Positions 2,916-40,112 of a stretch of DNA of 64,000 nt are shown in pieces. The stretch comes from a virus. The stretch is taken from IMG/VR virus record IMGVR_UViG_3300028025_000097, one strand, 5' to 3'. The notes below the pieces were generated by a model that saw only the letters and a list, made by a program, of their open reading frames with translations, was not told the origin of the DNA and did no database searches. The first letter of the stretch is position 1. Each line of letters begins with the position of its first letter. The translations under genes and the position numbers were made by a program.

Positions 2916-2944
2916 TTTGTATCACCTTTGTTCATCATGAAGTA

Positions 2945-2973: not shown

Positions 2974-2975
2974 TG

Positions 2976-3343: not shown

Positions 3344-3350
3344 GATGTTC

Positions 3351-3402
3351 TCCTTTATTCAACTGATGAGGCTATTCTACGTATTTTATCAAAATAAGTA
3401 AA
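3351..3402 (-). promoter_or_regulatory. early promoter + RBS cassette copy F
   Basis: TTTACT-17-TAGAAT; identical to 1154-1203. Confidence 0.85.
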
Positions 3403-3408
3403 CTGGCC

Positions 3409-3597
3409 CTAGTAGCCTCGGCCACCAAGTTCACGGTCAAGGGCCATTTCGGCCTGGCGCTCGAGATTCTGAATGGTGTGCCTGAGTTCAGTGCGATACT
3501 TCATCAGGTCCTTCACCTTGGCATCGGCTTGGAGAAGCTCTTTGTATAGATCGTCTAGTCTCTCCTGGAGATCCTCATAGCTCTGCGCGGAGCTCAT
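3409..3597 (-). CDS. hypothetical coiled-coil protein
   Basis: ORF, ATGA-coupled to the upstream ORF; heptad-like Leu pattern. Confidence 0.65.
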   Translation of the reverse strand: MSSAQSYEDLQERLDDLYKELLQADAKVKDLMKYRTELRHTIQNLERQAEMALDRELGGRGY

Positions 3598-3719
3598 CGC
3601 GCTTCTCCTTTGTGTTTCGTCTTACGGTTGTACTTGGTGCGGTCCCGCTGCACTTTGTGGCGAAAAAGGTTGCCGGTGCAATACAGTTCAGTCGCTCGGA
3701 GGCGTTTTGGCTTGGTCAT
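3594..3719 (-). CDS. 41-aa highly basic peptide, ArfA-like (not in ORF track)
   Basis: MTKPKRLRATELYCTGNLFRHKVQRDRTKYNRKTKHKGEAR*; GGAG RBS; first gene after promoter G. Confidence 0.6.
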   Translation of the reverse strand: MTKPKRLRATELYCTGNLFRHKVQRDRTKYNRKTKHKGEAR

Positions 3720-3746
3720 GGTCATCTCCATATTCATTATGGAGCC

Positions 3747-3775
3747 ATTCTATATATTTTATCAAAATAAGTACA
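3747..3775 (-). promoter_or_regulatory. early promoter cassette copy G
   Basis: TGTACT-TATTTTGATAAAATATA-TAGAAT. Confidence 0.8.
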
Positions 3776-3782
3776 TTAGGCC

Positions 3783-4016
3783 CTAGCTTCCACCCCAATG
3801 AGTTGCCACAAGACCAACTGGTGTCTTGTCATTTCTTGAGAGCTTCAAGACTTTGTATTCGCCTTTGGAGATGGCCATGTCGAATTCTTCTGCATATCCT
3901 TTATAAGCAAATTGATGCACGAAGATCTCACGACAATGCTCGAGCGACTTGGCCTTGATACAGACCATGCCTGCCCAATAATCAGACAAGACTTCTTCGA
4001 TGATATAGAGGTTCAT
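3783..4016 (-). CDS. hypothetical protein
   Basis: ORF with GGAG RBS, ends in WGGS. Confidence 0.7.
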   Translation of the reverse strand: MNLYIIEEVLSDYWAGMVCIKAKSLEHCREIFVHQFAYKGYAEEFDMAISKGEYKVLKLSRNDKTPVGLVATHWGGS

Positions 4017-11906: not shown

Positions 11907-12177
11907 TATAGCGGATCTAGTCAATAAATACGGGTTTCCTATTATCTCTGCCGCTGGTTGCGGATATATGATATTTTATGTGTGGAAATGGGCAACTGAA
12001 ACTGTTAAACCAGTCTTATCAGATGCTCAGACAACTCTGATTGCTCTCATCGATCGTGTTCGAATGCTTGACAATGATCTTATACGTCTTAATCAAAAAG
12101 TCAACGTAGCTTTGATGATAAGGGAAAAAGATGTTGCTAAGAATAAGTCTGACACTTCTTCTGATAACGACAAATAG
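11899..12177 (+). CDS. single-TM coiled-coil membrane protein (YvrJ/holin-like)
   Basis: YGFPIISAAGCGYMIFYVW...LIDRVRMLDNDLIRL. Confidence 0.65.
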   Translation: MDDIADLVNKYGFPIISAAGCGYMIFYVWKWATETVKPVLSDAQTTLIALIDRVRMLDNDLIRLNQKVNVALMIREKDVAKNKSDTSSDNDK

Positions 12178-12571
12178 TCTTGCCACAGAATTAGGCTTCT
12201 CGTTTAAGTCTCCTTCGTTCTCTGGTATAGGCTATTCATCTCATATTCAAACAATAGAGAACACTGAGAACTCAAGAAAAGAAGCTATCAAGTCAAAGCA
12301 TCAGGCTGAGATTGATAAAGCTGCTGCTGACTATAAGAACACAAATCTTCAGAAATTCTTGAATAACTTTGAATCAAGGGTCTATGCTCAGTTGTCTACT
12401 CAGTTAGTCAATTCATTGTTTGGTGAGAATCCTAAAGAGAAAGGAACAATTGAGCTTGAGGGTAATACCATCAACTACATCAAGACTGGTGATACGATAA
12501 GTCTTACTGTTCGAGCAGAAGACGGAAGCGTGACTCAGATTGAGATTCCAGTCGGGCAGTTTAAATTCTGA
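12131..12571 (+). CDS. csgF: curli assembly component CsgF-like
   Basis: Signal peptide, mature N-terminus TELGFSFKSPSFSG resembling CsgF F-x-N-P-x-F-G-G; C-terminal G..T.I.IP; directly before csgG. Confidence 0.75.
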   Translation: MLLRISLTLLLITTNSLATELGFSFKSPSFSGIGYSSHIQTIENTENSRKEAIKSKHQAEIDKAAADYKNTNLQKFLNNFESRVYAQLSTQLVNSLFGENPKEKGTIELEGNTINYIKTGDTISLTVRAEDGSVTQIEIPVGQFKF

Positions 12572-13338
12572 TGAAGTGGTTATGGATAGTAATCATAATG
12601 TCTTTATCAGGCTGTGCTTTCCCTGTGTATCCACTAAAGTATACACACGATGAGCCAAAGGTTCTTAAGCCAACATATACTAAGATGATTCCTGAGCCTA
12701 AGAACGGTAAAGTCATTGTAGCTGTTTATTCATTTGCTGATAAGACTGGTCAACGTAAAGACAGTGGTATGGTTGCTAAGTTATCTTCTGCTGTGACTCA
12801 AGGTGCAGAGTCTATATTGATCAAGTCATTGCAAGAAGTAGGTGACAGACATTGGTTTAGAGTGGTAGAAAGAGTTGGGCTTGACAATCTATTAAAAGAA
12901 CGTCAACTCATTCGTTCGTCAAGAGAAGAAGTAAAAGATGATTCCGAATTAAGACCCATCATATATGCTGGAATGTTGATTGAGGGTTCTATTGTAGCTT
13001 ATGATACAAATGTAAAGACAGGTGGTATGGGTGCAAGATGGTTAGGAGTAGGACCAAGTACCCAATACCAAGAAGATTTAGTGACGGTCTCAATTAGAGC
13101 AATCTCTGTTCAGACCGGTGAAATACTGATGACGATCAATGCACAGAAGTCTGTACTCAGTGTTGCAACGAATGTCTCTACTTTTAAGTTTTTAGAACAA
13201 GGCACCGCCAATCTTGAAGCAGAAGTAGGTGTCACATCAAACGAACCGGGACTCTATTGTTTACAGAGAGCAATCGAAACAGCAGTAGAAGAAATGGTAT
13301 ACGAAGGAAAGAAACTCGGAGTCTGGGACTTCAAATAG
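12571..13338 (+). CDS. csgG: curli secretion pore CsgG-like lipoprotein
   Basis: Lipobox LSGC; VAVYSFADKTGQRK, SAVTQG, WFRVVER.GLDNLLKERQLIR, EGSIVAYDTN. Confidence 0.9.
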   Translation: MKWLWIVIIMSLSGCAFPVYPLKYTHDEPKVLKPTYTKMIPEPKNGKVIVAVYSFADKTGQRKDSGMVAKLSSAVTQGAESILIKSLQEVGDRHWFRVVERVGLDNLLKERQLIRSSREEVKDDSELRPIIYAGMLIEGSIVAYDTNVKTGGMGARWLGVGPSTQYQEDLVTVSIRAISVQTGEILMTINAQKSVLSVATNVSTFKFLEQGTANLEAEVGVTSNEPGLYCLQRAIETAVEEMVYEGKKLGVWDFK

Positions 13339-13348
13339 GGAGAAAGAG

Positions 13349-14053
13349 ATGAAAAGGTCTATCGCATTGATTATGTCAATGATGATATCTTATATGGCGT
13401 TTGCTGTAGACAGTGGAGGCAATTCTGTCTATATCGATCAAACAAATGCTGACAACTCAACAGTTACAATTACACAGACTGGTTCTGGTAACAATATTGG
13501 TGATCCTGATGATGGTGTTACACCAGCATTTGTTATGGATGGTAACAACCTAGATATTACTATGACTCAAAATGGCATGAACAACGACATCGTAGGTAAC
13601 CTTATTGGTGGAGACACAACTGCTGTCATTACTCAAGACGGTAGCTTAAACTACCTTAAGACCACTCAAGGTTCTTTTGGTACACTCAATGGCAATCTAC
13701 ATCTAACGTTTACTGGTGATTCTAATTCAACTGAGCTTAATTTTGCATCGACAAACAATACCTCTAACTATGATTACAATATGACAGTCACTGGTGATAG
13801 TAATGATATCACAAGCACGATGAACAGTAAGTATATCGACAATGATATCGCCATTACTGGTGATACTAACATTATTACAACCACACAGATTGGGTATAAC
13901 GGAACTGCTTCTGTTCACGGTCATAAGATTGACTTCAATCTAATTGGTTCTAATAACACATTCGATATTCTCCAAAATGGTGTAACAACACATGACACGA
14001 TTGTCCTTAACTTTACTGGTGACAATAGTACTGTCAACATTACTCAGCACTAA
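13349..14053 (+). CDS. secreted curlin-repeat-like beta-solenoid protein
   Basis: Signal peptide; repeated I/T-x-Q/T-G-D/S-x-N units, Asn/Thr/Gly rich; follows csgG. Confidence 0.65.
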   Translation: MKRSIALIMSMMISYMAFAVDSGGNSVYIDQTNADNSTVTITQTGSGNNIGDPDDGVTPAFVMDGNNLDITMTQNGMNNDIVGNLIGGDTTAVITQDGSLNYLKTTQGSFGTLNGNLHLTFTGDSNSTELNFASTNNTSNYDYNMTVTGDSNDITSTMNSKYIDNDIAITGDTNIITTTQIGYNGTASVHGHKIDFNLIGSNNTFDILQNGVTTHDTIVLNFTGDNSTVNITQH

Positions 14054-15041
14054 TTCTTTTGCTGGTATAGGGTCAGTTACTGAAGAAAAGGGTCTCGGCA
14101 ATATTGTTCGTGATAAGACCGATATTGCCGCTGCCCTTGATGTTCCCGTAAATAATTTAGACAATCTTATTACAGGAAACGGAGTCGTCGGTGTTACTTT
14201 TAAAGATGACACCAAAGTAAGAGTCACTGAACATTCTAAGCTCTTGATCGACGACTTCGTTTATGATTCAAATAAAAAAGGAGCAGGGAAACTCGCTCTT
14301 AAAGTTGCCATTGGAACCGTAAGATATGCATCAGGCAACATAGCACACGAAAACAATAACTCTGTCAATATAAAGACTCCTACTGCTACAATTGCTGTTC
14401 GTGGTACTGCTTTCACAATGACGGTAGACGAGGTAGGGCAGTCATTAGTCGTTCTTCTTCCAAATATAGACGGTTCTGTAGGCTCTATTGAAGTCGCTAC
14501 TGCAATGGGAATCGTCAGTCTTAGTATGCCGTTTCAGGCAACCTTTACATCAAGTAGCGAAGTGAAACCATTGAATCCAGTTCAGCTTAATCTAAGTGAA
14601 TCTGCTATAAATAATATGTTAATAGTAAGCCCTCCAAAAGAAATCTTGGATAAGTTGATCAAAGAAGCAGATGACCGATCTGGTGCTTCTCTTGAATTTG
14701 ATGGACTTGATGTCAATGAATTAGATCAAGACGTATTCAAAAAAGATGAATTAGCATTTAACGAACTTGATGTCAATTCATTGGATTCAGATTTCCTTAC
14801 GAATGAATTAGATAATGCATTGACTGCGACTTTCAGTAAGGGATACAATTCCTCCACTCAGGTTTATGTCATCGATAAGAATACATTTTGGTGGATTCAA
14901 AGAATGGTTAAAGACAACATTACGATGTATGTCAACAAAGAAAGAGGATATAACATTACGATGATACAAGGAACTACTATTGTATCATTGAAGACTGATG
15001 ATTCAACAACTAACAACATCTTCATAAAGCAGACACAATGA
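13992..15041 (+). CDS. FecR-domain secreted protein
   Basis: Signal peptide; TGNG..GVTFKDDTKVRVTEHSKLLIDDFVYD, IKTPTATIAVRGTAF. Confidence 0.85.
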   Translation: MTRLSLTLLVTIVLSTLLSTNSFAGIGSVTEEKGLGNIVRDKTDIAAALDVPVNNLDNLITGNGVVGVTFKDDTKVRVTEHSKLLIDDFVYDSNKKGAGKLALKVAIGTVRYASGNIAHENNNSVNIKTPTATIAVRGTAFTMTVDEVGQSLVVLLPNIDGSVGSIEVATAMGIVSLSMPFQATFTSSSEVKPLNPVQLNLSESAINNMLIVSPPKEILDKLIKEADDRSGASLEFDGLDVNELDQDVFKKDELAFNELDVNSLDSDFLTNELDNALTATFSKGYNSSTQVYVIDKNTFWWIQRMVKDNITMYVNKERGYNITMIQGTTIVSLKTDDSTTNNIFIKQTQ

Positions 15042-17056
15042 AATATATCAAAAAGATTTTACTCTCGCCTTGGACTGCATTATTCACTCTGACTTTAGTC
15101 CTCTTCATTCGTTCACAAGATCCAGCATTTCTACAGTCTATTCGATTAAGATACTTCGATACACTTATCACTTCAAAGCAAGCACATCAATCTGAAAGTA
15201 TCAACGTAGTTAATATCGATGATGATACTATCAAGCAATTTGGTCAGTTTCCTTTCCCCAGAGACAAGTATGCTCAGATCATAGAGAATCTATTCAAGCA
15301 CAATGCAGGTCTTGTAGTCTTTAACATCTATATGCCTGATGCCGATAGATTTGGTAAGGATGGTGCGTTTGCTAACAGAATGTCGGTACAAGCTTTTCCT
15401 GTCGTCTTTCCTCAAATGGCAGGAACATCTAAATCCAGTTATGAACCATTTCGGCCCGGTGTCTCAGAGATTGGTGATTCTGCGACAGACTATACGATTC
15501 AATATGAAGCAATAGAACCTAATGTACAAGAGATTAATAATGTAGCGAAAGCAGTAGGAGTGGCAAATGTATTACCAGAAATTGATGGTGTTGTTAGGCG
15601 TGTTCCTATGGTCGTCTCAAGTGGAGGCAAGTTATATCCATCAATTGGACTTGAAACTCTGCGACTTGCCAGCGGAGACCCTAGCTTTCAGGTCAAATCA
15701 AATGCAGGAATCGAGGCTCTACGAATCCCAAGTTATGGAAAAATCACAACAGACTCTATCGGAAGAATCTGGGTGGATTGGTCTTCCAAACCAAATGAGT
15801 TTTCGTATAGTAAATTACCAGAAGATTTTGGACAGTCAATCGTTATTGTCGGAGTCACAGCAAAGGGACTCAATAATCCAATCGCAACTGCCGTGGGTGA
15901 ACAATTTCCTCATTACCTTCAAGCTTCCGTATTAGACACTCTTATCTCTGGTACAAATATCAGTCGTCCTGTTTGGGCTGATGGCGCTGAGATGTTGTTC
16001 TCTGTTCTAATAGTAATCATATCGTTATTCTTGATGCGCTTTATGATTGCTGGATATGTGTTTCCTCTTATAGCAATCGCAGGAATATACTATGGCTCTA
16101 AATACTATTTCATCAAAGAATCTTTGTTACTTGATGCTATCTTTCCAATCAGTGCTCTTCTTCTTTGTTTTATGCACGCTTATGTGGTGAAATTCATCTC
16201 TGAATGGCATCAAAAGCAGCAAGTCAAGAAGCAGTTTGGTACTTATCTATCGCCTGCATTGGTCGAGAAATTACAAAAGAATCCAGATCTATTGAAGCTC
16301 GGTGGTGAATCTAAAGAGCTATCGATTATGTTCACAGACGTTCGTGGGTTTACTGCGATCTCTGAGCATTACGGCGCAGACGTTCAAGGTCTAACTTCTA
16401 TTATGAATCGATATATGACGGCAATGACAGAGAAGATCATAGAGAACAATGGTACGCTTGATAAGTATATTGGTGACGCTCAGATGGCATTTTGGAATGC
16501 TCCTCTGGATGATCCACAACATGCCAAAAATGCAGTAAGAACAGCAATACAAATGATGGAGAGTTTAGATGAATTTAATCGACAAATTGAGCCTGAAGGT
16601 ATTCCTGCTTTTGGAATGGGTTTGGGTATTAACACTGGGACTGTTGTCGTTGGCAATATGGGTAGCGTTCAGCGTTTTGATTATACCTGTCTCGGTGATT
16701 CTGTCAATCTTGCTTCAAGGTTGGAAGGTCAATCCAAACCGTATGGAGTTCGAATTATATTGGGACCAATTACAGCGGAACAAGTCAAAGACGAATTCAA
16801 AATAGTAGAATTAGATTGCATTGCTGTTAAAGGTAAGAAGTTAGGCGTTAAGATTTACACACTTGGAGAAGAACCAATGCAAGAGAAATTCCTTTCAGAA
16901 TACTATGCAGGTAATTGGGATGAAGCTACGTTGATAGCTGAAGAAGCTGCTCGTAAGAATAAAGAGCTTAAGAAGTACTATGAAGCAATGATCGATCGCA
17001 TGAAAGAAGGTAAACCAGAAGACTGGGATGGCACTTATAGAGCAACATCAAAATAA
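15038..17056 (+). CDS. CHASE2-domain class III adenylate cyclase
   Basis: N-terminal TM + CHASE2 (VVNIDD..GQFPFPR, DGVVRRVP), 3 TMs, catalytic FTDVRGFT, DKYIGDA (Lys = ATP), GDSVNLASRLEG, VKGK. Confidence 0.92.
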   Translation: MKYIKKILLSPWTALFTLTLVLFIRSQDPAFLQSIRLRYFDTLITSKQAHQSESINVVNIDDDTIKQFGQFPFPRDKYAQIIENLFKHNAGLVVFNIYMPDADRFGKDGAFANRMSVQAFPVVFPQMAGTSKSSYEPFRPGVSEIGDSATDYTIQYEAIEPNVQEINNVAKAVGVANVLPEIDGVVRRVPMVVSSGGKLYPSIGLETLRLASGDPSFQVKSNAGIEALRIPSYGKITTDSIGRIWVDWSSKPNEFSYSKLPEDFGQSIVIVGVTAKGLNNPIATAVGEQFPHYLQASVLDTLISGTNISRPVWADGAEMLFSVLIVIISLFLMRFMIAGYVFPLIAIAGIYYGSKYYFIKESLLLDAIFPISALLLCFMHAYVVKFISEWHQKQQVKKQFGTYLSPALVEKLQKNPDLLKLGGESKELSIMFTDVRGFTAISEHYGADVQGLTSIMNRYMTAMTEKIIENNGTLDKYIGDAQMAFWNAPLDDPQHAKNAVRTAIQMMESLDEFNRQIEPEGIPAFGMGLGINTGTVVVGNMGSVQRFDYTCLGDSVNLASRLEGQSKPYGVRIILGPITAEQVKDEFKIVELDCIAVKGKKLGVKIYTLGEEPMQEKFLSEYYAGNWDEATLIAEEAARKNKELKKYYEAMIDRMKEGKPEDWDGTYRATSK

Positions 17057-30390: not shown

Positions 30391-31050
30391 TTAATCCTCG
30401 TAGGTAGAAGTAGATTCAGTAGTAATCCAATACTGTACACCATCATCAGACACAAAGTGGCCGATACCCTTAGCGACAAATACGTCATAAGACTTACTCA
30501 TCATCTTAAGATTGTTGCAAGAGAAGATGATCTTAAACGTCTTACTGGTTTCCTTTACTTCGAGCTCAAACGTATTGTTTGAAGAATTCTTAGAATCCAT
30601 AGCTCGAAGGAGTAGACGACCATCTTCACCTACAAGAGCAATTTCTGGCAACTGAAGGACACTCGAAGCCCTCATTAGATTTTGAAGATTATCAGCAGTC
30701 AAATTAAACTCTACATATGACTCACCTACCTTGATGTCCTTATTCGGAGGAAGGATCATCGTGATAGGATCAGCATAGATAAAGTTTACGCTCTTACGAC
30801 CATCAGTAACCTTCACATAGTTATCACAAAGAAGGAGTTCTGGATCATCGAACAGAGACAGAACTCCTAGAAAACGATTCAAATCAAAGATGCCAAAGTC
30901 CTTTTCAATCGTCTCGTCAATCTGAGCTCGAGCCATTACCGTTTTAATCGGTGAAATGGTCGATAGTACATTACCAGTATTGAACATGATAGACGGATTG
31001 ATAGAGCTAAAGTTCTTTAGAATCTGAATCGTTTTTGCACTTAGTTTCAT
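30391..31050 (-). CDS. gp45: sliding clamp
   Basis: MKLSAKTIQILKNFSSINPSI, FGIFDLNRFL; synteny. Confidence 0.93.
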   Translation of the reverse strand: MKLSAKTIQILKNFSSINPSIMFNTGNVLSTISPIKTVMARAQIDETIEKDFGIFDLNRFLGVLSLFDDPELLLCDNYVKVTDGRKSVNFIYADPITMILPPNKDIKVGESYVEFNLTADNLQNLMRASSVLQLPEIALVGEDGRLLLRAMDSKNSSNNTFELEVKETSKTFKIIFSCNNLKMMSKSYDVFVAKGIGHFVSDDGVQYWITTESTSTYED

Positions 31051-31058
31051 AATAAACC

Positions 31059-31916
31059 TCACTTACCCTTTTTATGTGAATAGCTAGCATCAGCAGTAGC
31101 TGCAGCACCGATCGATGCTAGATCTGCAAGAGATCCACCAAAGATGTAAGTACCAACGTGTTGCAACTGCATCCAAGGACAGAACCATACCTGACCGCCC
31201 ATCTTCTGAACGTTATAACAGAACATGTAGTCTTCTGATAGGTAACGCTTAGAGACTGGATCGATGATACAATCAAAGAATGCCATAATCTCACGACTAC
31301 CATCAAAGTGTTCAGTACGAACATGATCAGGCTTATAAGAAAGCTCAGGAAATGCTTCTTGATATTTCTCAAACGTACGGCGACGAATCATCATGAATCC
31401 AGTACCAATTTCAGATACTTCAACTGGTTCACCAATTGGGATCTGAGCTTGACCAGACTTAGGATTGAACACATAATCACCGACATATTTTTCTAGATTA
31501 TTTGGATTATCGTCAGCAACACCTTTATCTACGGCGAGCTTAATCTTTTCCCAAGAGATGCACTTCTTAGGATATGGACCACCGATAACGTCGTATGGAC
31601 TTGCATCGTCTTGAATAGCAAGAAGCGCAATAACGTCATTTGGATTGAATCCAATATCACTGTCAATGAACATCAAGTGAGTCGCGCCTGAACGCATAAA
31701 CTCGTCAGCACAATAGTTGCGTGCTCGAGTAATCAGAGATTCGTTGAATAGGAAGTACAGCTGAAGAGGAATACCGTATTGGGTACAGATAGCTGATAGA
31801 TCGGCGACTGAACGGGCAAACATGCCTGTGCACTGACCACCATACATGGGCACCGCTAGGAATAGCTTACGCGTTCTTAGAACTTCTACAGGAACTTTTA
31901 CTTGAAAATTAGACAT
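31059..31916 (-). CDS. GT-A fold glycosyltransferase-like protein
   Basis: ESLITRARN, THLMFIDSDI (DxD), GTGFMMI, YLSEDY.FC; own late promoter. Confidence 0.7.
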   Translation of the reverse strand: MSNFQVKVPVEVLRTRKLFLAVPMYGGQCTGMFARSVADLSAICTQYGIPLQLYFLFNESLITRARNYCADEFMRSGATHLMFIDSDIGFNPNDVIALLAIQDDASPYDVIGGPYPKKCISWEKIKLAVDKGVADDNPNNLEKYVGDYVFNPKSGQAQIPIGEPVEVSEIGTGFMMIRRRTFEKYQEAFPELSYKPDHVRTEHFDGSREIMAFFDCIIDPVSKRYLSEDYMFCYNVQKMGGQVWFCPWMQLQHVGTYIFGGSLADLASIGAAATADASYSHKKGK

Positions 31917-31995: not shown

Positions 31996-32301
31996 TCATA
32001 CCAGTTCAGGTATATTTAAACGCATATCTTTTTCTTTTTGTTCTTGGGAATCTTGGACATACATCTCAATGATTGCATAATGGATGATCTTCATCAGATC
32101 CTTTCGATTGTAACCTCCCTTCTTACCGTATCGTTTAGCGTACTTCATGATGTTACCCATACAAAAACCAGTGCCATGACCAGCATCAATGATCATATCA
32201 GTCGCCTGATATTTGCCGCTATAGTGTTCGTTATAAGTTGCATCGATATATTTCATTACTGTATCGATAGAATTTTTTTCATTATATTTGTATGTAATCA
32301 C
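31996..32301 (-). CDS. DUF3310 family protein (T7 gp1.7-like putative nucleotide kinase)
   Basis: HY...GFCMGNIMKYAKRYGKK...DLMK..HY. Confidence 0.75.
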   Translation of the reverse strand: MITYKYNEKNSIDTVMKYIDATYNEHYSGKYQATDMIIDAGHGTGFCMGNIMKYAKRYGKKGGYNRKDLMKIIHYAIIEMYVQDSQEQKEKDMRLNIPELV

Positions 32302-33359
32302 GAGAAGAAATCCTCCAATGTTGTTGCCTGCTGTGTATTGTTATATTCTTTACCTTGCCAATGCGGGTAAAACTCTCGAGAAAGATGAACTGACTTAGGC
32401 TTTTCCATGAATGAAAAATCTAGTTCACCGTTCTGATTGATCATGTGCTTGGTCCATTCAAAGAGCTTTACATCATCTGTCTGTTGTTTCTTACATTCAT
32501 CGATGAATATGCTTCTTATCCTATCGCGATCTTTCCATGAACCATAAAATGGAGTGCCTTTATACCAACCAGTCTTAGGAATAGGACGACTCTCATTCTC
32601 AATAGGGAGAGGTTCATATATCTGTGCAGGAATATTGAATTGCTTCACTGCATCGAAGTAATTCTTAACTAGATCTCGAGTAGCTTTATCAGAATTACTT
32701 TGACGACAAAGATGATGACGAATATCAATGTTGCCAAAGTAAAATTCTAGTTGCTTAAATTCATACTGATTACTATAGATGAATTTGTCTAGACCTTCTT
32801 TGAGAGCTCCAAACAAGGTTTTGAACGGCACTGAGTTGACCATCCATCCGGGTCGATACATGCAGATAGCATGACTATCGCCACATGAGATCTTATCATA
32901 TGTCTTGATAAGATTAGGATCTACTACTTCTGCGCTATCCTGAATACGCTTCAGATTATCCCAATCAACTTGATACCAACGAGGATCTATGTCTTCTTGT
33001 TTATCTTTATCCGTCAGAATACGCATGCGTTCTTGAAGCATTGCATGGTAATCAGGAAAGTCGATACATATAGAATACACTTTGCCTTTAAAGTGCGAGA
33101 ACTCTTTGAAGTTATCCACATTAGCATACTCTTTCAATCCACCAAAAAGATTGAGAGTTCCACCCCAATCATTACCGTGATAGACATATATCGTATCATA
33201 GTCATGAACGTTCTTTAGATTGCCAGACATCGCAACATCGATGTCTACACCAGACTGCTTTATTTGATCGGCATAAATGATGCCTTGTGCTGCACGATGA
33301 CTACTAATACTCTTTGAGATAGGAGTAAAAGGACTCATCAATAAACATTTATTGCGCAT
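32298..33359 (-). CDS. hypothetical protein with SGNH/GDSL-hydrolase-like C-terminal domain
   Basis: GDSHA (block I), YFGNIDIR (block III-like), SVHL (block V-like). Confidence 0.5.
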   Translation of the reverse strand: MRNKCLLMSPFTPISKSISSHRAAQGIIYADQIKQSGVDIDVAMSGNLKNVHDYDTIYVYHGNDWGGTLNLFGGLKEYANVDNFKEFSHFKGKVYSICIDFPDYHAMLQERMRILTDKDKQEDIDPRWYQVDWDNLKRIQDSAEVVDPNLIKTYDKISCGDSHAICMYRPGWMVNSVPFKTLFGALKEGLDKFIYSNQYEFKQLEFYFGNIDIRHHLCRQSNSDKATRDLVKNYFDAVKQFNIPAQIYEPLPIENESRPIPKTGWYKGTPFYGSWKDRDRIRSIFIDECKKQQTDDVKLFEWTKHMINQNGELDFSFMEKPKSVHLSREFYPHWQGKEYNNTQQATTLEDFFS

Positions 33360-34227
33360 GCTTATCCCACTTAACGTTTGAATTTATTCTGTCGTAAATA
33401 GTTTGATCTTGTAATCTCGGTTCCGTCCCGACATTCCAGAAGATTATATCACGTCCACTATATTTAGGTACATACTTCCAGGCCTTTCCATCGTAGGTAT
33501 TTACAGTAGGAAATGGTGGCAGATTCTCTGGCCTCTCTACATCCTGAAAGTCCAAAGGCTCTGATATAACTTGAGCTCTTCCAAGTTCACCTGCCTTTAG
33601 GTTTCGTGCAACTGCCACGCAATTAAACTTTGCTTTTGGCCATGCGATCTGAAGTGCTCTTGACAATACACCAGTAGAGATAGCGACATATACTTCTTCT
33701 GGTGCTGGAATCTTACTTGCAACCTTTACTATGCCTGCAGTAACCAGTTCATGTCTCAATCCAAGAGGAACAAAGAATGCGCCATTTTCTTTTGCCCAAT
33801 CTGCAGCTGCTTTATTTAAATTTGGCATAGCAGCGATACGTTTGAACATAGGAATAGCACCGCGTTCTATACAACATGCTTGATGTAATGAAATTTTCTT
33901 TGATGCAGGCATAAACAATACCACTTTCTTATTGTGGCGATTTGCTACATCTAAAAGAGATACACCAGCAAGACCTACACGAGGTTGAGAATATACGATA
34001 GTATCTGAGGGACAGCGTGATATGAGAAGATCTCCGCCTCTTACCTTTGTTCCTGTAATCAAATCATCTCTGACTACTCTGATGCCTTCATGCTCTACGA
34101 TGACTGGTGCAGGATTAGGATCTTCCCATCCTTCTGCCAATGACAAATAGTATTCCTTTGCCGCTTCAAGACCATAGAGACCAACATCTTTGTTGACCCC
34201 ATCAATTACATGATTATCGTGTGACAT
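33349..34227 (-). CDS. PLP-dependent enzyme, fold type II
   Basis: VRDDLITGTKVRG (PLP lysine), VAISTGV, YDGKAW, FWNVG. Confidence 0.8.
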   Translation of the reverse strand: MSHDNHVIDGVNKDVGLYGLEAAKEYYLSLAEGWEDPNPAPVIVEHEGIRVVRDDLITGTKVRGGDLLISRCPSDTIVYSQPRVGLAGVSLLDVANRHNKKVVLFMPASKKISLHQACCIERGAIPMFKRIAAMPNLNKAAADWAKENGAFFVPLGLRHELVTAGIVKVASKIPAPEEVYVAISTGVLSRALQIAWPKAKFNCVAVARNLKAGELGRAQVISEPLDFQDVERPENLPPFPTVNTYDGKAWKYVPKYSGRDIIFWNVGTEPRLQDQTIYDRINSNVKWDKHAQ

Positions 34228-35209
34228 CGTATTTCCCAGTTTTCAGTGACCAATTACTTGGGTAAACCCAATCATAAGGAATTTGCTTAGTCTGCTTCTT
34301 AGTTCCAAACCTCATAGCCATATATTTAAAGTGCATACACAATTTATCTTCTAGGTTTAGATACATATGTGTCGTAATAGGGTTACTCTTATGTTGAGCA
34401 AGATAATCCATCATCTCTACTAACTGATGTCCTTGCTTATTCGTAGGCACGTACTTACCATCTTCATCGACCTCATACTTACACTTACCCATCAAGTTAG
34501 GACCATCAAAGATCTGCTGAAGTCCGTCAAAGAATCCTGTGCCTCCATGCAAAAAACTATTTGGGTCTACCCATTCTGGATGAGACATAGCTACATGGCG
34601 AGATGCGTTCTTACATGGATACATGGCATTCCTAAAACCTTGTTCCTTTACGAAATGCTCGTTTAGAAGCTTAGTAAACTCCATCATAGAATACGGTCTG
34701 TCTTTTGTTCCTAACAATTTAGACAGAGGTTCAGCAGCTCGTTCTGGAACGGTTGCTAACCAGTTATGTACTTTTGTATCTTTAGGATAATAGATCTGAA
34801 ATAGGTCTGAACGCGAATGACGATGATCCTCAAACCGAGTAAGCATCGCAGCTGCACCACCATCTCTCCATGTAATGTATGTTTGCCAGTGTTCATTACT
34901 AAATGAGAACAATAGGCATGCAGTCATGATTCTCAATGGATCGTCGATGACCTTCATCTCATCTACAAATGGGCATTCATGCCAGTGCAAACGATGAGAT
35001 AACTGTTGATAGTTTTGTCTAAGCATAGAATCTTCTCGTTCATCATATGCTCTGCAAAACTCAAAGAACTTTTCAACTCTTTCTTCGAGAGTCCAATCTC
35101 TCATCCAACTATGAACTGGTTTACTCTTATGGTCGAGATCTACGTTTACAAGTGCCTTATAGGCGATATCCTTTGATGTATCTGTAAGTAGTGCTTCAAG
35201 ATTATTCAT
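34214..35209 (-). CDS. aGPT-Pplase-like amino-acid:DNA transferase (HhH glycosylase fold)
   Basis: EDSMLR, GGTGFFDGL, NLEDKLCMHFKY parallel the D.IL / GPGA..GL / E..LCE..KY family motifs. Confidence 0.6.
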   Translation of the reverse strand: MNNLEALLTDTSKDIAYKALVNVDLDHKSKPVHSWMRDWTLEERVEKFFEFCRAYDEREDSMLRQNYQQLSHRLHWHECPFVDEMKVIDDPLRIMTACLLFSFSNEHWQTYITWRDGGAAAMLTRFEDHRHSRSDLFQIYYPKDTKVHNWLATVPERAAEPLSKLLGTKDRPYSMMEFTKLLNEHFVKEQGFRNAMYPCKNASRHVAMSHPEWVDPNSFLHGGTGFFDGLQQIFDGPNLMGKCKYEVDEDGKYVPTNKQGHQLVEMMDYLAQHKSNPITTHMYLNLEDKLCMHFKYMAMRFGTKKQTKQIPYDWVYPSNWSLKTGKYDVTR

Positions 35210-36375
35210 AGAGCGGCGACCATTTGTTTGTACTGATCTACAGTCAATCCTGCTTGTTTAAGAATAGCGTCATCAGAAGGATGAGACTTCATACCATTAA
35301 ACGTCTTAACGATGCCAAGATCTAACATGGCTTTCTGACGTCCATATGGATGATCTTTGATCTTACAGCTAGACCATACTGCATCAAAATCTAAATGATC
35401 ATATGCGGCACCAGGACGAACATAGTTTTCTACCCATCGAATGAAATCGCAGCATACGTCTTCAGCATTATAAGGCAATGATCCAGTGTCTTCGTAGATC
35501 TTTGTCATGACTGCATCCAAGAACTGTTCTTGTTGCATCTTCTTTACTGGCTTTGCGAGATAAGAAATACACTCTACAGCATTAGTACCGTAATAAAACA
35601 TGCTTTCTTTATTGACATATTGAGGATACCAATCAGCAACGTCTGCGACGACAGCTGCATATTGAAACCTATACGCATTTATGCCATTTCGTTTGTTCCA
35701 ATTCAACATGAATTCACCAAGTTCACGAAGATCTTTCTTCGATCCACTTGATTCTAACCATTCAGCCATCTCTCGAGCAAGGTGAGGAGCAAACTCAGTT
35801 AGATAATAGTCTCCGCTACGCTTATATCCAGATCCCGCTGGTGGTTTAGGAAAGCTAGGAAACTGATAGCCAATTGAAGTATAAAATGGTTGTGGATAAT
35901 GATTGACGAGTTTAGTCATCTCTTCAATAGTTTTACACTGATAGAGATGCAATAGAAGTGTGTTATGATACCCAGATGGTTTGGTCGAGTAATTGATAGC
36001 ACTACCAGTTACTCTATGAAGAATAAAGATGTACAACCATTCTGGTAATTTAAAGTCAGAGTGTTTACCAGTCCATGATTTAGCTACCATATCTCGTTGT
36101 CGTGTATGAACGCCTGCTTGCATCTTACGCCAATATGGATGTTGATCTGTCCATCCGTAAAAGCAATCATTAACAATCTGAGAGAATCCAGCATACTTAC
36201 GTTCAACTACATCATATAGATGCACATGATGAAGCAGCTCATCGCCCATATTAGATTCTTCATGAGCCATCATGCCATATGGTTCATCGTCTGCTACATT
36301 ACACTTGATCTGTTGATCTAATGCAAGCTTATAATATCTGACGTATTCATCGTAATATTGAGTAGGTTCAATCAT
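35206..36375 (-). CDS. aGPT-Pplase-like amino-acid:DNA transferase (HhH glycosylase fold)
   Basis: DELLHHVHLYDVVER, FQYAAVVAD, YGTNAVECI, AEDVCCDFIRW. Confidence 0.6.
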   Translation of the reverse strand: MIEPTQYYDEYVRYYKLALDQQIKCNVADDEPYGMMAHEESNMGDELLHHVHLYDVVERKYAGFSQIVNDCFYGWTDQHPYWRKMQAGVHTRQRDMVAKSWTGKHSDFKLPEWLYIFILHRVTGSAINYSTKPSGYHNTLLLHLYQCKTIEEMTKLVNHYPQPFYTSIGYQFPSFPKPPAGSGYKRSGDYYLTEFAPHLAREMAEWLESSGSKKDLRELGEFMLNWNKRNGINAYRFQYAAVVADVADWYPQYVNKESMFYYGTNAVECISYLAKPVKKMQQEQFLDAVMTKIYEDTGSLPYNAEDVCCDFIRWVENYVRPGAAYDHLDFDAVWSSCKIKDHPYGRQKAMLDLGIVKTFNGMKSHPSDDAILKQAGLTVDQYKQMVAAL

Positions 36376-36785
36376 AGTATATCTTTTAGTCTTTGAATTA
36401 TATCTTGATGACGCTGCGGGTCATTTAGATTACGATTACGAGGAGAAGGATGATCAATCATCATATGATTAATTTTGTACTTCTTAAGTACACGACTTAC
36501 AAATCCACCTAAAGCAACCACTACTCGCTTATTGCTTGTTCTTTCAAACAAGAGATTGCAATCTACGTCATCAATATTAAGCGAATTGATCTTATCAGGA
36601 ATTACATTATGGAAGTCCCATTCATATATTCCTGCAGAATTACACCACTTCTTTAAAGTGTTGAATGATCCGTTTGAGAAAGGTTCTGTTTTAGTAGAAG
36701 GACAAATGCCAATAAAAATGATTTCATCTGATCGTTTATGATCAGGCATGAAATCCACCATATCACGCAAGCCAGACTTTATCAT
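36372..36785 (-). CDS. uracil-DNA glycosylase superfamily protein (minimal)
   Basis: IFIGICPS, VVALG, HPSPRN. Confidence 0.7.
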   Translation of the reverse strand: MIKSGLRDMVDFMPDHKRSDEIIFIGICPSTKTEPFSNGSFNTLKKWCNSAGIYEWDFHNVIPDKINSLNIDDVDCNLLFERTSNKRVVVALGGFVSRVLKKYKINHMMIDHPSPRNRNLNDPQRHQDIIQRLKDIL

Positions 36786-37230
36786 ACCAATTTACACTCA
36801 CGCCCGCTTCTTTAAACATGCTATAAGATTGTTCGCCAGATACTTTCCACTTTTCAGGGATATCAGCTTTCATTATCTCTGGAGTATATATGACTACTCT
36901 TTTAATACCAACTTGGATAACGCCTTTAGCACACTCCGAACAAACAGGTAAGCCATAAACGTAAAGAGTAGCTCCATTCAAACTTACTCCGTTGAGTGTA
37001 GCATTATAGATACAATTCATTTCAGCATGAACTACATATTTATACTTCTCTTCACGATCATTTAAACGTGCTGATGTATCATCAATACCACGAGGAAAAC
37101 CATTGTATCCTTGGGATAGAATCTGTCCTCTTATACCAGTAGTGATAGATCCAACTTTAATAGATGGATCCTTAGACCACGTTGAGATATGACGCGCTAA
37201 CTCGCTATACTTCATGTCCCAGTTTGTCAT
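36763..37230 (-). CDS. cd: dCMP deaminase
   Basis: SKDPS, GYNGFPRG, HAEMN, PVCSEC. Confidence 0.93.
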   Translation of the reverse strand: MTNWDMKYSELARHISTWSKDPSIKVGSITTGIRGQILSQGYNGFPRGIDDTSARLNDREEKYKYVVHAEMNCIYNATLNGVSLNGATLYVYGLPVCSECAKGVIQVGIKRVVIYTPEIMKADIPEKWKVSGEQSYSMFKEAGVSVNWYDKVWLA

Positions 37231-37883
37231 TTGATTAACCCAAAATGTCTTTCATATACGTGCAACGACCCGACATTCCAGACAATATTGCCTAGTTGAA
37301 GTGCTAGATCATCACATAGCTGAAGAGCAACATACTGCTGCCACGCGAAGTCATTTTTATATCCGAACACCACATCATTAGATCTCATGTTTACGATAGC
37401 ATGTAAGCGATCATAACGAATCAAATACTGAACGGTATTGGTGCACATAAAGTCATTCATGCCAAGGAATTTATAATCATAGTGCATGAATGGACGAGTG
37501 TAAATCATCACAGCCCGACGAGAATTGGGATTCTGTTGTAGTTCCTTTAATACATTCTCGTACTGATTACCGTTTTCCTGGCTATAGATGCACCAACCAT
37601 AGTTAGAATTAATATAACCATGTTCATCTGCTACTTGTTTCCAAATTTCAGGTGCACCACCAGGAATATCATGTACACTTAATGACTGCGATTTATACCA
37701 CTCGAGTTCACGAGCAACATAATCAGTATTCACTGTGCCAAAGATCGACGGTTCATCAGCGATAAACTGTGCACCAGCCAATTCAAGAGTCTTAACGCCA
37801 GTCTTATCGATTACAAAATCTTCAGACCTAAGAGCAAGATTAAAATATTCACGAATAGAACTAACAGTATTGTGTCGCATCAT
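37227..37883 (-). CDS. gp42: dCMP hydroxymethylase (T4 gp42-like)
   Basis: DKTGVKT, RELEWYKS, INSNYGW, DFMCTNTVQYLIR, NMRSNDVVFGYKNDFAWQ (Asp at the dCMP-specificity position), WNVGSLHVY. Confidence 0.9.
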   Translation of the reverse strand: MMRHNTVSSIREYFNLALRSEDFVIDKTGVKTLELAGAQFIADEPSIFGTVNTDYVARELEWYKSQSLSVHDIPGGAPEIWKQVADEHGYINSNYGWCIYSQENGNQYENVLKELQQNPNSRRAVMIYTRPFMHYDYKFLGMNDFMCTNTVQYLIRYDRLHAIVNMRSNDVVFGYKNDFAWQQYVALQLCDDLALQLGNIVWNVGSLHVYERHFGLIK

Positions 37884-38307
37884 CTACCATTCCTTTAATA
37901 GCAAGTGCTGTATCAGTACCAACATAAACATTATCAGAAACTTGCGCAAATGTCTCTGGCCAGAGACGCTCTGTTTCTGTTACTTTCTTATTGAGGAAGT
38001 TACGAGTTGGATCTTGACCTTCCATCTTGCCTCGCATATAAGACACGAAGAATGAACCATAGTTAATAAGATCGATAGCAGAATCTTCTAAACTTTCGAA
38101 GTTAGGTTTATAGTTCTTATCATTTTCCATAGCTTCCATAACAGAGTACATGCGAAGCACTTTGCTATGAATCAAATCCAGAATAGTGGCACAACCATGT
38201 GGATAGTACTGTGCTTGCTTAATGCGTGATTCTGCATTCTGATAGTCATTAGACTTTTTGTTTTGAATAGCTGCTGCTTCTTCAAGAGCTTTAAGAGATT
38301 CTTTCAT
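37861..38307 (-). CDS. nucleotide-modification-associated domain 1 (Nmad1/DUF1599-like)
   Basis: KKSNDY, K..R, ESLEDSAIDLINY. Confidence 0.7.
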   Translation of the reverse strand: MKESLKALEEAAAIQNKKSNDYQNAESRIKQAQYYPHGCATILDLIHSKVLRMYSVMEAMENDKNYKPNFESLEDSAIDLINYGSFFVSYMRGKMEGQDPTRNFLNKKVTETERLWPETFAQVSDNVYVGTDTALAIKGMVDDATQYC

Positions 38308-38312
38308 ATATT

Positions 38313-38819
38313 TTATCCTTTCACTCGATAATAATAACCATCGTATTTAGATTCTTGTAGATTTTTTAATACGTGATCAGCACTTTCTAACTTAAGGTAT
38401 TCAAATGTAATTTTATCATCAACTTCTAATGGTCTAAGAGGCCTATTCATATGATAGAATGCGAAGTGTGTCAAATTATTATTTTCAAATGCCTTTTTCA
38501 TCCAAGGAATATTGCGTATTTTTTCCTTTGGAATACTATAGTATTTAGTATTGACACATTTTACATCTATTTTATATTCATGTACACAGAAATCATGTAC
38601 TTTATCATAAGATTTTTCTACTAATTTTCTTTGAATTAAAGTATATTCTAATAAAGTGTAGTCTGCATCTATCATTCTTTCTTCAAGAGTTCTTCCACAT
38701 GGTAAAAGAAGTTCAACTTGAGCATCACGATATTCTATAAAGTCTTGATCTACTATAACTTCTCCTAAAGATTCAACTGACTCTCTAAGATAAGAATCTA
38801 GTTCACGCATTTTCATCAA
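38313..38819 (-). CDS. hypothetical protein, possible PD-(D/E)xK nuclease
   Basis: HDF...IDVK; noticeably AT-rich gene. Confidence 0.45.
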   Translation of the reverse strand: MMKMRELDSYLRESVESLGEVIVDQDFIEYRDAQVELLLPCGRTLEERMIDADYTLLEYTLIQRKLVEKSYDKVHDFCVHEYKIDVKCVNTKYYSIPKEKIRNIPWMKKAFENNNLTHFAFYHMNRPLRPLEVDDKITFEYLKLESADHVLKNLQESKYDGYYYRVKG

Positions 38820-39213
38820 ACAGCATTCCTAATAGACCAACATTATCTTTATGACTCGGGGCAATCCAACCTTCTGGTTTAATGAGATCTGGAAGACCAA
38901 GAGGATTTGGACGACTTGGTTTGATTCCAACCATCTTATTCATATTAGCTTTATGTACTTCATCCCAAGCAAGACGAGCGTCTACATCAAACAAATCAAG
39001 TGTACCAATAGCAACTACGCAAAGATCAATTAAAGCATCTACTACATCATCTGCGGTTTCAGCTGTACTTAGTTCATTCATTTCTTCTTCAAGAAACTTG
39101 ATACGAAACTCTAAGAACTTATTTAGCTTTTCTTTATCAAAAGCTTGAACTTTATCAAATACACCATACTTTTCGTGCATGATCATAATATCATGCGCCC
39201 AATTGTTACTCAT
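38803..39213 (-). CDS. MazG-like NTP pyrophosphohydrolase
   Basis: FLEEEMNE, VDALIDL, WDEVHKANM.K, KPEGW. Confidence 0.85.
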   Translation of the reverse strand: MSNNWAHDIMIMHEKYGVFDKVQAFDKEKLNKFLEFRIKFLEEEMNELSTAETADDVVDALIDLCVVAIGTLDLFDVDARLAWDEVHKANMNKMVGIKPSRPNPLGLPDLIKPEGWIAPSHKDNVGLLGMLFDENA

Positions 39214-39228: not shown

Positions 39229-39573
39229 TTAAGAACAGTGTTTTCTAGTCATCTTCCAGCATGAACACATCTTACACATTTTATCTGGATCTTGTACAAA
39301 ACATTCCGGTGATCCATACTGAATGTATTCATCTTTACCTTTCACTTTAGGTTTAGGTTTAGGTTTAGGATCTTCTTCATTCACGTATTGTAGTTTTACT
39401 CGACCATCATGACCATGAATTTCTATGATATGATCTTTACAATCAAAGAAAGCCATACCAGTTATCTTTTTGTAATTAGCGTTTAGCCAATTTAAAGCAC
39501 AACGACCATCAGTAAAGATTACACCTTCAGCAACGATTATATCATTATCCTGTATTAAATTAAACAGTTTCAT
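39229..39573 (-). CDS. hypothetical protein
   Basis: VAEGVIFTDG...IHGHDG; PK repeat; Cys-rich tail. Confidence 0.65.
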   Translation of the reverse strand: MKLFNLIQDNDIIVAEGVIFTDGRCALNWLNANYKKITGMAFFDCKDHIIEIHGHDGRVKLQYVNEEDPKPKPKPKVKGKDEYIQYGSPECFVQDPDKMCKMCSCWKMTRKHCS

Positions 39574-40112
39574 AGTGCTAACTTCGCTGGTTTTTGACGT
39601 TTCTGAACTTTAAGAGCTTGTCGCTTTGCGCGATCTAACAATGCTTTGTTTGCTCTCTGTGTAAAGTTGATTCCTTCAAGGTGATCCATCTCATGGAGAA
39701 AACATCGAGCTGTCATTCCTACAAATTGTTGGGTAGTTGTTTCTCCAAATGCATTCGTAAAACGAGCTTTAACAAACATAGGACGCTTGATCTTTACATA
39801 CATAAATGGATATGAAAGGCATCCTTCATCTAGATTAACTTCCTCAGGAGAAACTTCGATTATACGCGGGTTATAGCATACTATAGCTTCTTCTGCTCGC
39901 ATCACGAACACTCTCCATGGAAGTCCTACTTGATTTGCTGATAGCCCCATGCCTGAGTTATGATTCATGGTTGCTATCAAGCAATTAGCCAGATAAACGG
40001 GAGGTAAAGGAGGATTCTCGAAATCAAACCGTTTAGTAGGTTCAAATAGAATAGGATGAGTATTTGGTACTAAAGGTAGTATGTCGTGAGTCAGTAATGT
40101 TTCTTCTGTCAT
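39570..40112 (-). CDS. def: peptide deformylase
   Basis: GMGLSANQ, EGCLS, HEMDH. Confidence 0.93.
   Translation of the reverse strand: MTEETLLTHDILPLVPNTHPILFEPTKRFDFENPPLPPVYLANCLIATMNHNSGMGLSANQVGLPWRVFVMRAEEAIVCYNPRIIEVSPEEVNLDEGCLSYPFMYVKIKRPMFVKARFTNAFGETTTQQFVGMTARCFLHEMDHLEGINFTQRANKALLDRAKRQALKVQKRQKPAKLAL

Follow-up and report, generated by a model that had tools for sequence, protein, structure and literature searches.

A gp42-linked phage gene cassette encoding a BGT-like/SGNH chimera and HhH-fold proteins, predicted to hypermodify cytosine

The closest described systems hypermodify pyrimidines in phage DNA. Phages M6, ViI and PaMx11 modify thymidine with a dUMP hydroxymethylase, a 5-HMUDK kinase, a clade-2 aGPT-Pplase/amino-acid:DNA transferase and a pyridoxal phosphate (PLP)-dependent decarboxylase, as set out in PMC8989533, and the T-even phages make glucosylated 5-hydroxymethylcytosine (hmC) with gp56, gp42 and an alpha- or beta-glucosyltransferase (the latter BGT). 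Here, we analysed a stretch of 64,000 nt from the virus record IMGVR_UViG_3300028025_000097, hereafter the window, which carries at positions 31996..39213 a cassette coding for a gp42-like enzyme, a BGT-like/SGNH chimera, two HhH-fold proteins (HhH_A and HhH_B) and a PLP enzyme. Like the M6, ViI and PaMx11 systems, the cassette encodes an HhH-fold protein, in many loci together with a paralogue, in which a Glu and a Cys are conserved, as well as a predicted fold-type II PLP enzyme, and the hydroxymethylpyrimidine would be made before replication. Unlike them, it has a cytosine-type hydroxymethylase (Asp, not Asn), an SGNH chimera and no kinase that we could find, and its HhH proteins lie outside PF18724 and show the clade-1 motif spacing. 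Its links to the T-even pathway are a gp42 protein (63% identical), an N-terminal domain with weak likeness to BGT and a surrounding T4-like replication module, but an SGNH domain replaces the UDP-glucose-binding half of BGT, no T4 beta-glucosyltransferase match is present, and a MazG-type enzyme is found rather than gp56.

Two cytosine systems and two cultured phages are also close. The 5-carbamoyloxymethylcytosine pathway (dCMP hydroxymethylase plus carbamoyltransferase) shares the neighbourhood of thymidylate synthase (TS), deaminase and PRA-PH genes and an O-acyl-type group on the hmC hydroxyl, which is predicted here; it differs in using another enzyme fold and in that its product is the end point, and the available part of PMC8670742 describes no HhH or PLP enzyme for it. 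Formation of arabinosyl-5-hydroxycytosine in RB69 and DLP3 (PMC13326640) likewise involves a TS homologue with the dCMP Asp in T4-like phages without T4 glucosyltransferases, but these homologues are flavin hydroxylases with 29% identity to the protein studied here, and the operon has no arabinose genes. ORF233c of Aeromonas phage 44RR2.8t and ORF225c of Aeromonas phage 25 belong to the same BGT-N/SGNH family, with the triad kept and gene 42 present, and differ in their partners, namely an inositol-type HhH fusion with a symporter in the former and a sugar mutase with a glycosyltransferase-like open reading frame (ORF) in the latter; no match to HhH_A or HhH_B was found among 50,697 phage records, nor one to the PLP enzyme in these phages.

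We propose that the gp42-like enzyme makes 5-hydroxymethyl-dCMP (hm-dCMP), so that hmC would be built into the DNA, and that the BGT-N/SGNH chimera would then O-acylate hmC at or behind the replication fork, replacing the kinase. The Cys residue of HhH_A would attack C6, the acyloxy group would be lost and an amino acid captured, and the PLP enzyme would trim the adduct, probably by decarboxylation. That virion DNA contains some non-glucose hypermodified cytosine is probable. Acylation as the activating step is slightly favoured. The chain as a whole, for which the repeated SGNH-HhH fusions and the fact that no kinase was found speak, is put forward tentatively, at somewhat under an even chance. 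An amino acid as the incoming group is suggested by likeness to ViI and M6. In a more general form, to which we give about even chances, a widespread group of T4-like phages would use a clamp-tethered BGT-half/SGNH O-acyltransferase as a general hmC activator, and exchangeable HhH enzymes would add varied non-sugar groups, amino-acid-derived here and cyclitol elsewhere, probably in 44RR2.8t. What is new is an undescribed enzyme architecture, whereas the general plan of pyrimidine hypermodification is known; the predicted product would be a cytosine modification lacking a chemical description so far. No description of the cassette was found in a literature search that left most subscription journals and article supplements outside its reach, and term searches of PMC13326640 and 10.1101/2023.12.21.572611 returned no occurrence of Aeromonas, aGPT or SGNH.

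An earlier note, made from the letters of this DNA alone, had described a single, tightly overlapping operon. This holds: all 11 genes are encoded on the minus strand and 9 of the 10 junctions overlap, with gaps from the DUF3310 gene to the MazG gene of -4, -11, -14, -4, -4, -23, -4, -23, +5 and -17 bp. A search of IMG/VR with HhH_A gave 84 relatives among 85 pattern matches, from which 80 loci at 62-100% identity were kept; as the arrangement recurs across these viral loci, it is not due to chance. For genes downstream of HhH_A, the counts refer to 56 loci that extend 3.3 kb or more on that side, and for upstream genes to 44 loci that extend 2.5 kb or more. Many loci are near-identical and were not reduced to species, so that the counts describe gene order, not independent events. 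The features are as follows, with locus counts in brackets and G001 and G005 denoting large relative contigs, the former 99% complete.

38803..39213, minus strand: MazG/PRA-PH nucleotide pyrophosphatase, 136 amino acids (PF01503, E 5.3e-08; PHROG pyrophosphohydrolase families; 32/44)
38313..38819, minus strand: ORF of 168 amino acids, accessory (no relevant Pfam or PHROG match; 17/44; absent from G001 and G005)
37861..38307, minus strand: Nmad1-like small helical protein, 148 amino acids (DUF1599 at E 0.11 only; phrog_18404, phrog_1485; 32/44)
37227..37883, minus strand: T4 gp42-like dCMP hydroxymethylase (predicted), TS fold, 218 amino acids, Cys147 and Asp178 (PDB entry 1b49, E 3.8e-89; TS in 36/44)
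36763..37230, minus strand: dCMP deaminase, 155 amino acids, accessory (PF00383, E 1.8e-17; 20/44)
36372..36785, minus strand: uracil-DNA glycosylase (UDG)-superfamily protein, 137 amino acids, accessory (PF03167, 26.3 bits against a cut-off of 24.3; 23/44)
35206..36375, minus strand: HhH_A, predicted group transferase with Glu305-x3-Cys309, core (model pLDDT 90.9; 8z2m, Z 9.0)
34214..35209, minus strand: HhH_B, optional paralogue of HhH_A with Glu287-x3-Cys291 (Atlas neighbours, deep HhH_A profile; 35/56)
33349..34227, minus strand: fold-type II PLP enzyme (predicted), 292 amino acids, Lys61 (phrog_7093 'threonine dehydratase', E 4.7e-38; 53/56)
32298..33359, minus strand: BGT-N-like/SGNH chimera with Ser162, Glu319 and His325, predicted hmC O-acyltransferase (SGNH fold, Z 13.2; 54/56)
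31996..32301, minus strand: DUF3310 protein, accessory (PF11753, E 1.2e-10; 42/56; absent from G001)
31059..31916, minus strand: phrog_1574 protein, possibly GT-A-like, probably not core (phrog_1574, E 5.1e-62; Anp1, E 0.065; 36/56)

Library matches above the curated cut-offs bear out the labels that the earlier note had given to the DUF3310, UDG, dCMP deaminase, TS-fold and PRA-PH/MazG proteins, and its SGNH label is borne out by a structural model. Nmad1 is weak as a label, and a 'possible nuclease' at 38313-38819 found no support. The two HhH-fold assignments stand on different ground: that of 35206-36375 comes from the model and fold search, and that of 34214-35209 only from Atlas features and profile homology to its neighbour. 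The MazG/PRA-PH protein likely fills the dCTPase role and the deaminase likely feeds dTMP synthesis.

The base that would be modified is indicated by the TS-fold protein. It shares 134 of 212 aligned residues (63%) with T4 gp42 and 124 of 217 with the gene 42 product of 44RR2.8t, and its Cys147 and Asp178 align with Cys148 and Asp179 of T4 gp42. Asp178, in the specificity motif RSNDVVFGYKND, is the dCMP-specific residue; the roles of the catalytic Cys and the specificity Asp in TS-fold hydroxymethylases are described in PMC8670742. All but one of 71 distinct TS-like proteins from the loci (70) share the Asp, the exception being the additional, ordinary TS that 44RR2.8t carries beside gene 42, which has Asn, and ThyX is present in four of five large relative contigs (G005-G008, not G001). 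The dCMP Asp and the ThyX genes argue that cytosine, not thymine, is the likely target, as the earlier note had held. We are confident in cytosine as the predicted target base, and hm-dCMP synthesis by this enzyme is, following known gp42 biochemistry, very likely. The acidic residue at the ThyA Leu143 position is present (GMNDFMC, compared with GMSDFMC in T4), and 5hodCMP synthases, which are hydroxylases, share it with gp42 (PMC13326640). Identity as a 5-hydroxycytosine synthase was rejected as unlikely, since RB69 gp48, the product of which is 5-hydroxy-dCMP according to the same source, has only 61 of 212 residues (29%) in common with the protein.

A known thymidine derivative would be the end product if the enzyme used dUMP or if the deaminase converted hm-dCMP to hm-dUMP. 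The deaminase gene overlaps the TS-fold gene, and G001 has a single TS-fold gene, with no ThyX, no second TS and no recognised dNMP kinase family. In addition, every proven amino-acid:DNA transferase in the available part of PMC8989533 acts on 5-hydroxymethyluracil (5hmU). Against this stand the Asp and ThyX counts, the presence of the deaminase gene in fewer than half of the loci (20/44), the co-occurrence of deaminase and PRA-PH genes with TS in modified-cytosine contigs (PMC8670742) and the finding that 44RR2.8t and phage 25 each carry gene 42 plus an ordinary TS, so that we hold a thymidine product to be highly improbable. At two loci, L178:5986-11155 and L053:4668-9670, the SGNH, HhH_A and PLP genes stand beside a distant TS (about 30% identity or less) with the dCMP Asp, and L178 also has a P-loop nucleotide-kinase-like ORF of 317 amino acids.

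The product of the SGNH gene appears to be a chimera. In its model (pLDDT 88.3), residues 147-335 adopt an SGNH fold (Z 13.2, rmsd 3.1, 168 residues aligned), and nearly all of the 50 listed fold matches are SGNH proteins, among them the O-acetyltransferases OatA and PatB (Z 10.4); the fold includes both hydrolases and transferases. The residues Ser162, Glu319 and His325 are present in all of 120 distinct relatives, and the other blocks are likewise kept (block I Ser162 in 120, block II Gly184 in 119, block III Asn210 in 107 with Ser in the remaining 13, block V His325 in 120). Block V departs from Asp-x-x-His and reads Glu319-x5-His325 instead, with Glu in 120/120, from which we infer a variant Ser-Glu-His triad. 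The N-terminal third, which the earlier note had missed, resembles T4 BGT: residues 3-101 align with BGT residues 1-101 in hhalign (probability 51.6, E 1.5e-4), with N70, F72 and D100 in register, and the SGNH domain stands where BGT has its UDP-glucose-binding half. Asn70 is kept in 118-119 and Phe72 in 117 of the 120 relatives. Asn70, Phe72 and Asp100 are the residues that in BGT presumably flip out the base and take the proton from the hmC hydroxyl. The BGT-like front domain is predicted to point to the hydroxymethyl group itself as the target. This sequence likeness is weak, and Asp100, kept in only 93/120 relatives, speaks against it. PF09198 matches weakly in 10 of 26 chimera family members, the window protein scoring 18.3 bits against a cut-off of 27. 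A search of PDB sequences with the SGNH alignment gave a chance match only, and BGT is absent among the 50 fold matches listed for the model, these being filled by the SGNH domain.

The chimera ends in TTLEDFFS, and the polymerase in TSLEDFFA; these are the only two such tails among the non-overlapping ORFs of the window, and the LEDFF tail occurs in 66/120 SGNH relatives compared with 0-2 in the other four families. By comparison with T4, we take this tail to be a putative clamp-binding motif. T4 alpha-glucosyltransferase co-purifies with gp45 (PMC13216743).

A kinase that could activate hmC was not found. The earlier note had seen neither a kinase nor a T4 glucosyltransferase in the window, and none was found in near-complete relatives either. 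PF18748 (5-HMUDK) was unmatched in all eight genomes or contigs searched (G001, G002, G004, 44RR2.8t and G005-G008; three of the IMG/VR ones at least 90% complete), and phmmer with ViI gp67 and gp243 returned no match at E 0.1 in G001 or G005, one match at 0.096 falling on the clamp of the window. A Pfam scan of 144 of the 155 ORFs of G001 gave no HMUDK and no T4 glucosyltransferase family; its GT1, GT2 and APS-kinase-like ORFs are all distant from the cassette. The positive control was strong (ViI, 1.6e-117), but PF18748 found one of the two ViI kinases and missed gp243, and this limited sensitivity tells against reading too much into the negative searches. Known amino-acid:DNA transferases need a leaving group (PMC8989533).

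Which genes belong to the cassette was judged from the locus counts and their exceptions; a wider search with HhH_A gave 912 proteins among 2297 candidates. The core is gp42, the SGNH gene and HhH_A, usually with the PLP gene; HhH_B, DUF3310, the 'nuclease', the deaminase and the UDG-like gene are optional. At two loci, L011 and L013, gp42 lies in another part of the contig, it was not found on the 47-kb contig of L077, and L076 has HhH_A by itself on a 4.9-kb contig. Two exceptions count against the proposed chain: in L022 the two HhH genes and PLP are present, but neither SGNH nor TS occurs within 14.5 kb, and L071, L072, L074 and L075 have SGNH and HhH_A without PLP. DUF3310, the 168-amino-acid ORF and phrog_1574 were rejected as core parts, being absent from G001, which has the whole cassette.

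The earlier note had taken the SGNH gene for a late acylating add-on. It is instead the most constant partner of HhH_A (54/56 loci) and may supply the activation step that is otherwise missing. It is retained in cassettes that differ in their HhH type and in their metabolic partner (PLP enzyme, inositol-phosphate synthase or symporter). In an SGNH-centred scan of viral sequences, at least 582 of at least 600 stretches were confirmed, and the best 80 of the 582, a choice that favours close relatives, were used. Among these were 48 loci with 3.5 kb upstream, of which 37 have HhH_A/HhH_B with PLP, 7 another HhH type and 4 neither in view. The alternative HhH type scores above the PF18723 cut-off and adjoins an inositol-1-phosphate synthase gene. 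We observed this synthase together with the PF18723-type HhH protein (the latter not seen in L181) at L157:3247-5995, L167, L173, L175, L176, L181, L186 and L188; in these cassettes HhH_A and PLP are replaced, and an FkbM methyltransferase is present at times. An ORF of about 400 amino acids resembling C5 cytosine methyltransferases directly follows the SGNH gene at L028:6737-7933, L167:6999-8186 and L188:6220-7470, and by size in many further loci, which is odd for an hmC genome.

Fusions link the SGNH and HhH proteins directly. All seven proteins of more than 600 amino acids among the 150 HhH_A matches listed, which come from metagenomes, are SGNH-HhH_A fusions, in which GDSH, block III and block V are intact in every case. 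Among cultured phages, the SGNH gene occurs in 43 records, with 40 near-full-length matches, in Aeromonas phages and in Stenotrophomonas phage IME13. ORF233c of 44RR2.8t is a BGT-N/SGNH protein of 795 amino acids fused to an inositol-type HhH domain (E 4.6e-37 to L175) that is common to 19 records. The adjacent ORF234c codes for a sodium:solute symporter (L081:7405-11385), and import by this symporter may replace donor synthesis in 44RR2.8t. According to Petrov et al. 2010 (PMC2993671), gene 42 is present in Aeromonas phages 44RR, 31 and 25 while a glucosyltransferase is lacking, and the nature of their modification is left open there.

The principal evidence against the full chain comes from phage 25, which has gp42 and an intact stand-alone SGNH gene (ORF225c) and, by three profiles, no HhH partner. 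Its SGNH neighbours (L088:2773-6044, the same genomic site) are a UDP-galactopyranose mutase and a glycosyltransferase-like ORF of 358 amino acids, the latter labelled by eye as it has no Pfam match. This gene set suggests galactofuranosyl-hmC, possibly acylated. The presence of SGNH without HhH, beside a sugar mutase and a glycosyltransferase-like ORF that need no activation, tells against the chimera being an activator and nothing else, and fits better with an acyl group that stays on the DNA as a decoration. A further point against the chain is that the strict Glu-Cys pattern is missing in 4/7 SGNH-HhH_A fusions. One might speculate that the chimera is not an activator but adds a stable acyl group, on hmC as a parallel end product or on a group added by another enzyme, while the HhH Cys substitutes hmC directly via a C6 adduct. 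C5-methyltransferases are known to substitute hmC directly with thiols. OatA and PatB among the SGNH fold matches are O-acetyltransferases, and the last step of the PaMx11 pathway is catalysed by an acetyltransferase (PMC8989533). Yet the BGT-like front domain would aim at the hydroxymethyl group itself, SGNH is fused to HhH_A in seven proteins and to another HhH type in one fusion family, and known transferases require a leaving group although no kinase was found. We consider stable acylation with direct substitution unlikely, though it is the strongest competitor of acyl activation.

The role of the HhH proteins in the proposed acyl activation and transfer is weighed on fold and motif. The best fold match of the HhH_A model is 8z2m, the PaMx11 gp46 glycinyltransferase (Z 9.0, rmsd 4.0, 206 residues aligned, 8% identity). 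Glu-x3-Cys is found in 99/99 distinct full-length HhH_A copies from the loci and in 56/56 HhH_B copies, extended in these copies to Glu-x3-Cys-x3-Arg/Lys, and the proven transferases M6 gp51 and ViI gp247 cannot do without a Cys and a Glu close to it (PMC8989533). Among distant HhH_A relatives of at least 300 amino acids, the strict motif is present in 49/70. The deep HhH_A profile recovers 13 of 14 HhH_B proteins at E<0.01.

Several results weigh against a transferase assignment. The match to 8z2m is roughly tied, within about 1 Z, with those to queuine salvage enzymes (DUF2419; Z 8.3 and 8.1), and the AGOG glycosylase follows closely (Z 7.9), with other HhH glycosylases below. With no clear gap between the first three matches, and in a helical protein, the modelled fold places HhH_A in a superfamily and does not tell the reaction. 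The motif is missing in 21/70 distant relatives, and its spacing is that of ViI gp160 (clade 1), not of gp247 (E-x4-C). ViI gp160 itself is reached by the deep profile only at E 0.018 (44 targets), and hhalign of HhH_A and HhH_B against gp247 was not significant. Neither protein has a Pfam or PHROG match, PF18724 and PF18723 included. Clade-1 activity was not needed in M6, where gp54 and gp51 sufficed for transfer (PMC8989533).

Other searches bear on how the HhH proteins are classified. No match to PF18724 above the cut-off was found for 14/14 HhH_B relatives, and PF18723 matched 1/30 distant HhH_A relatives, at E 0.01 and below the cut-off; in most clusters of Atlas neighbours, PF18723 or PF18724 is found on a minority of members (11-51%). 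Searches by tblastn with HhH_A and HhH_B returned no relative among 50,697 phage records, and hhalign comparisons of the two with each other, with the C-domain of 44RR2.8t and with the inositol-type alignment were not significant. The PF18723 family search is blind to the HhH_A subfamily, having missed G005 and G006, both HhH_A carriers. The claim of the earlier note that these are aGPT-Pplase transferases is therefore kept in part, on the top fold match and the invariant Glu and Cys, and given up in part, as they lie outside PF18724 and have clade-1 spacing: at best, they work like amino-acid:DNA transferases and are not filed as members of the family.

Alternatively, the HhH proteins could be glycosylases or hydrolases that repair deaminated hmC or attack unmodified host DNA, in which case the DNA would have only hmC or acyl-hmC. 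The queuine salvage hydrolase and the 8-oxoguanine, AlkA and endonuclease III glycosylases that fill fold ranks 2-12 of HhH_A fit this idea, as does the adjacent UDG-like gene in 23/44 loci. The first-ranked fold match is a transferase, however, Glu-x3-Cys is invariant in the locus copies, and repair leaves unexplained both the PLP enzyme (53/56 loci) and the swap for inositol supply, which makes this explanation quite unlikely.

Under the proposed chain, the PLP enzyme would act last. The window protein has no Pfam match of its own, and the fold-II label of the earlier note has indirect support from phrog_7093 and cultured-phage relatives above the PALP cut-off. These relatives, in Erythrobacter phage ZS04 and Microcystis phage Mae-JY30, have 30-33% identity and score 40.1 and 46.3 bits against a cut-off of 35. 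Lys61 is invariant (19/19), and the motif is present in 87/94 sequences. The motif order is the same as in ViI gp226, a decarboxylase acting on DNA (PMC8989533), and decarboxylation is proposed by analogy, modelled on ViI and M6; the weak profile match (probability 11.4) detracts from it. A live alternative is that the PLP enzyme makes the donor instead. Acyl activation and HhH transfer would be kept, and the enzyme would act on small molecules to make the nucleophile, a beta-replacement product or an amine. In favour of such a supply role, 7/48 SGNH loci swap HhH_A and PLP for the other HhH type, those scanned having inositol-phosphate synthase, itself a supply enzyme, and 44RR2.8t has the symporter in the place of PLP. 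The nearest PDB sequences are cysteine synthases, but these matches (E 0.05-0.14) are not significant, the motif order is that of a DNA-acting decarboxylase, and the ZS04 and Mae-JY30 relatives are joined to DNA methylase domains or lie next to them. We rate this supply role as rather improbable, below the stable-acyl explanation.

In ZS04 (L218:2326-4764) and Mae-JY30 (L219:4477-6795), the PALP domain is inserted in or adjoins an N6/N4 DNA methylase, in the latter beside genes annotated as ParB/sulfiredoxin; this may be another base modification of a new kind. Possible enzymes of amine or amino-acid supply in G001 are a RimK-like ligase (L090:8774-9664) and a saccharopine-dehydrogenase-fold ORF (L090:18428-19867), which we take to be homospermidine-synthase-like.

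The phrog_1574 ORF, also missed in the earlier note, starts 79 bp downstream of the operon, next to the clamp gene (30391-31062), and has a DSD motif. It follows the operon in 36/56 loci and shows a faint match to the Anp1 glycosyltransferases (E 0.065), so one could imagine that it glycosylates hmC and that the cassette only decorates the sugar. With the entire cassette present in G001 and phrog_1574 missing from this 99% complete genome, we give this little credence.

If acyl activation by the chimera is true, a base O-acyltransferase would be a new class of DNA-acting enzyme, a hydroxymethyl base would have a kinase-free activation route, and the cytosine derivatives found in nature would gain new members. 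Such activation would also bear on the question left in PMC2993671, namely how Aeromonas phages 44RR, 31 and 25 protect their DNA. As Aeromonas phages are cultured, the SGNH half of the model is testable. Because the SGNH family is common in viral metagenomes (the at least 582 confirmed stretches), there is possible relevance to escape from restriction, CRISPR and glycosylase defences, to sequencing bias against such genomes and to a tool for labelling 5hmC.

The cassette lies in a T4-like context, between the clamp gene and the gp46-like genes. One flank has polymerase, UvsX, helicase, clamp and clamp loader, the left-flank replication labels coming from translations and homologues in G001, and the other flank has a gp46/47-like pair, UvsW, capsid, portal, sheath and terminase. 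A peptide deformylase gene (39570-40112) lies between the operon and gp46 and is kept in many related loci. On the plus strand at 12131-17056 are five genes, the last coding for a CHASE2-cyclase, which by their order resemble a module of G001 (CsgF, CsgG, curlin-repeat, FecR and CHASE2-cyclase proteins). The GC content of positions 1-4000 is 0.50-0.52, compared with 0.32-0.45 in the remaining window.

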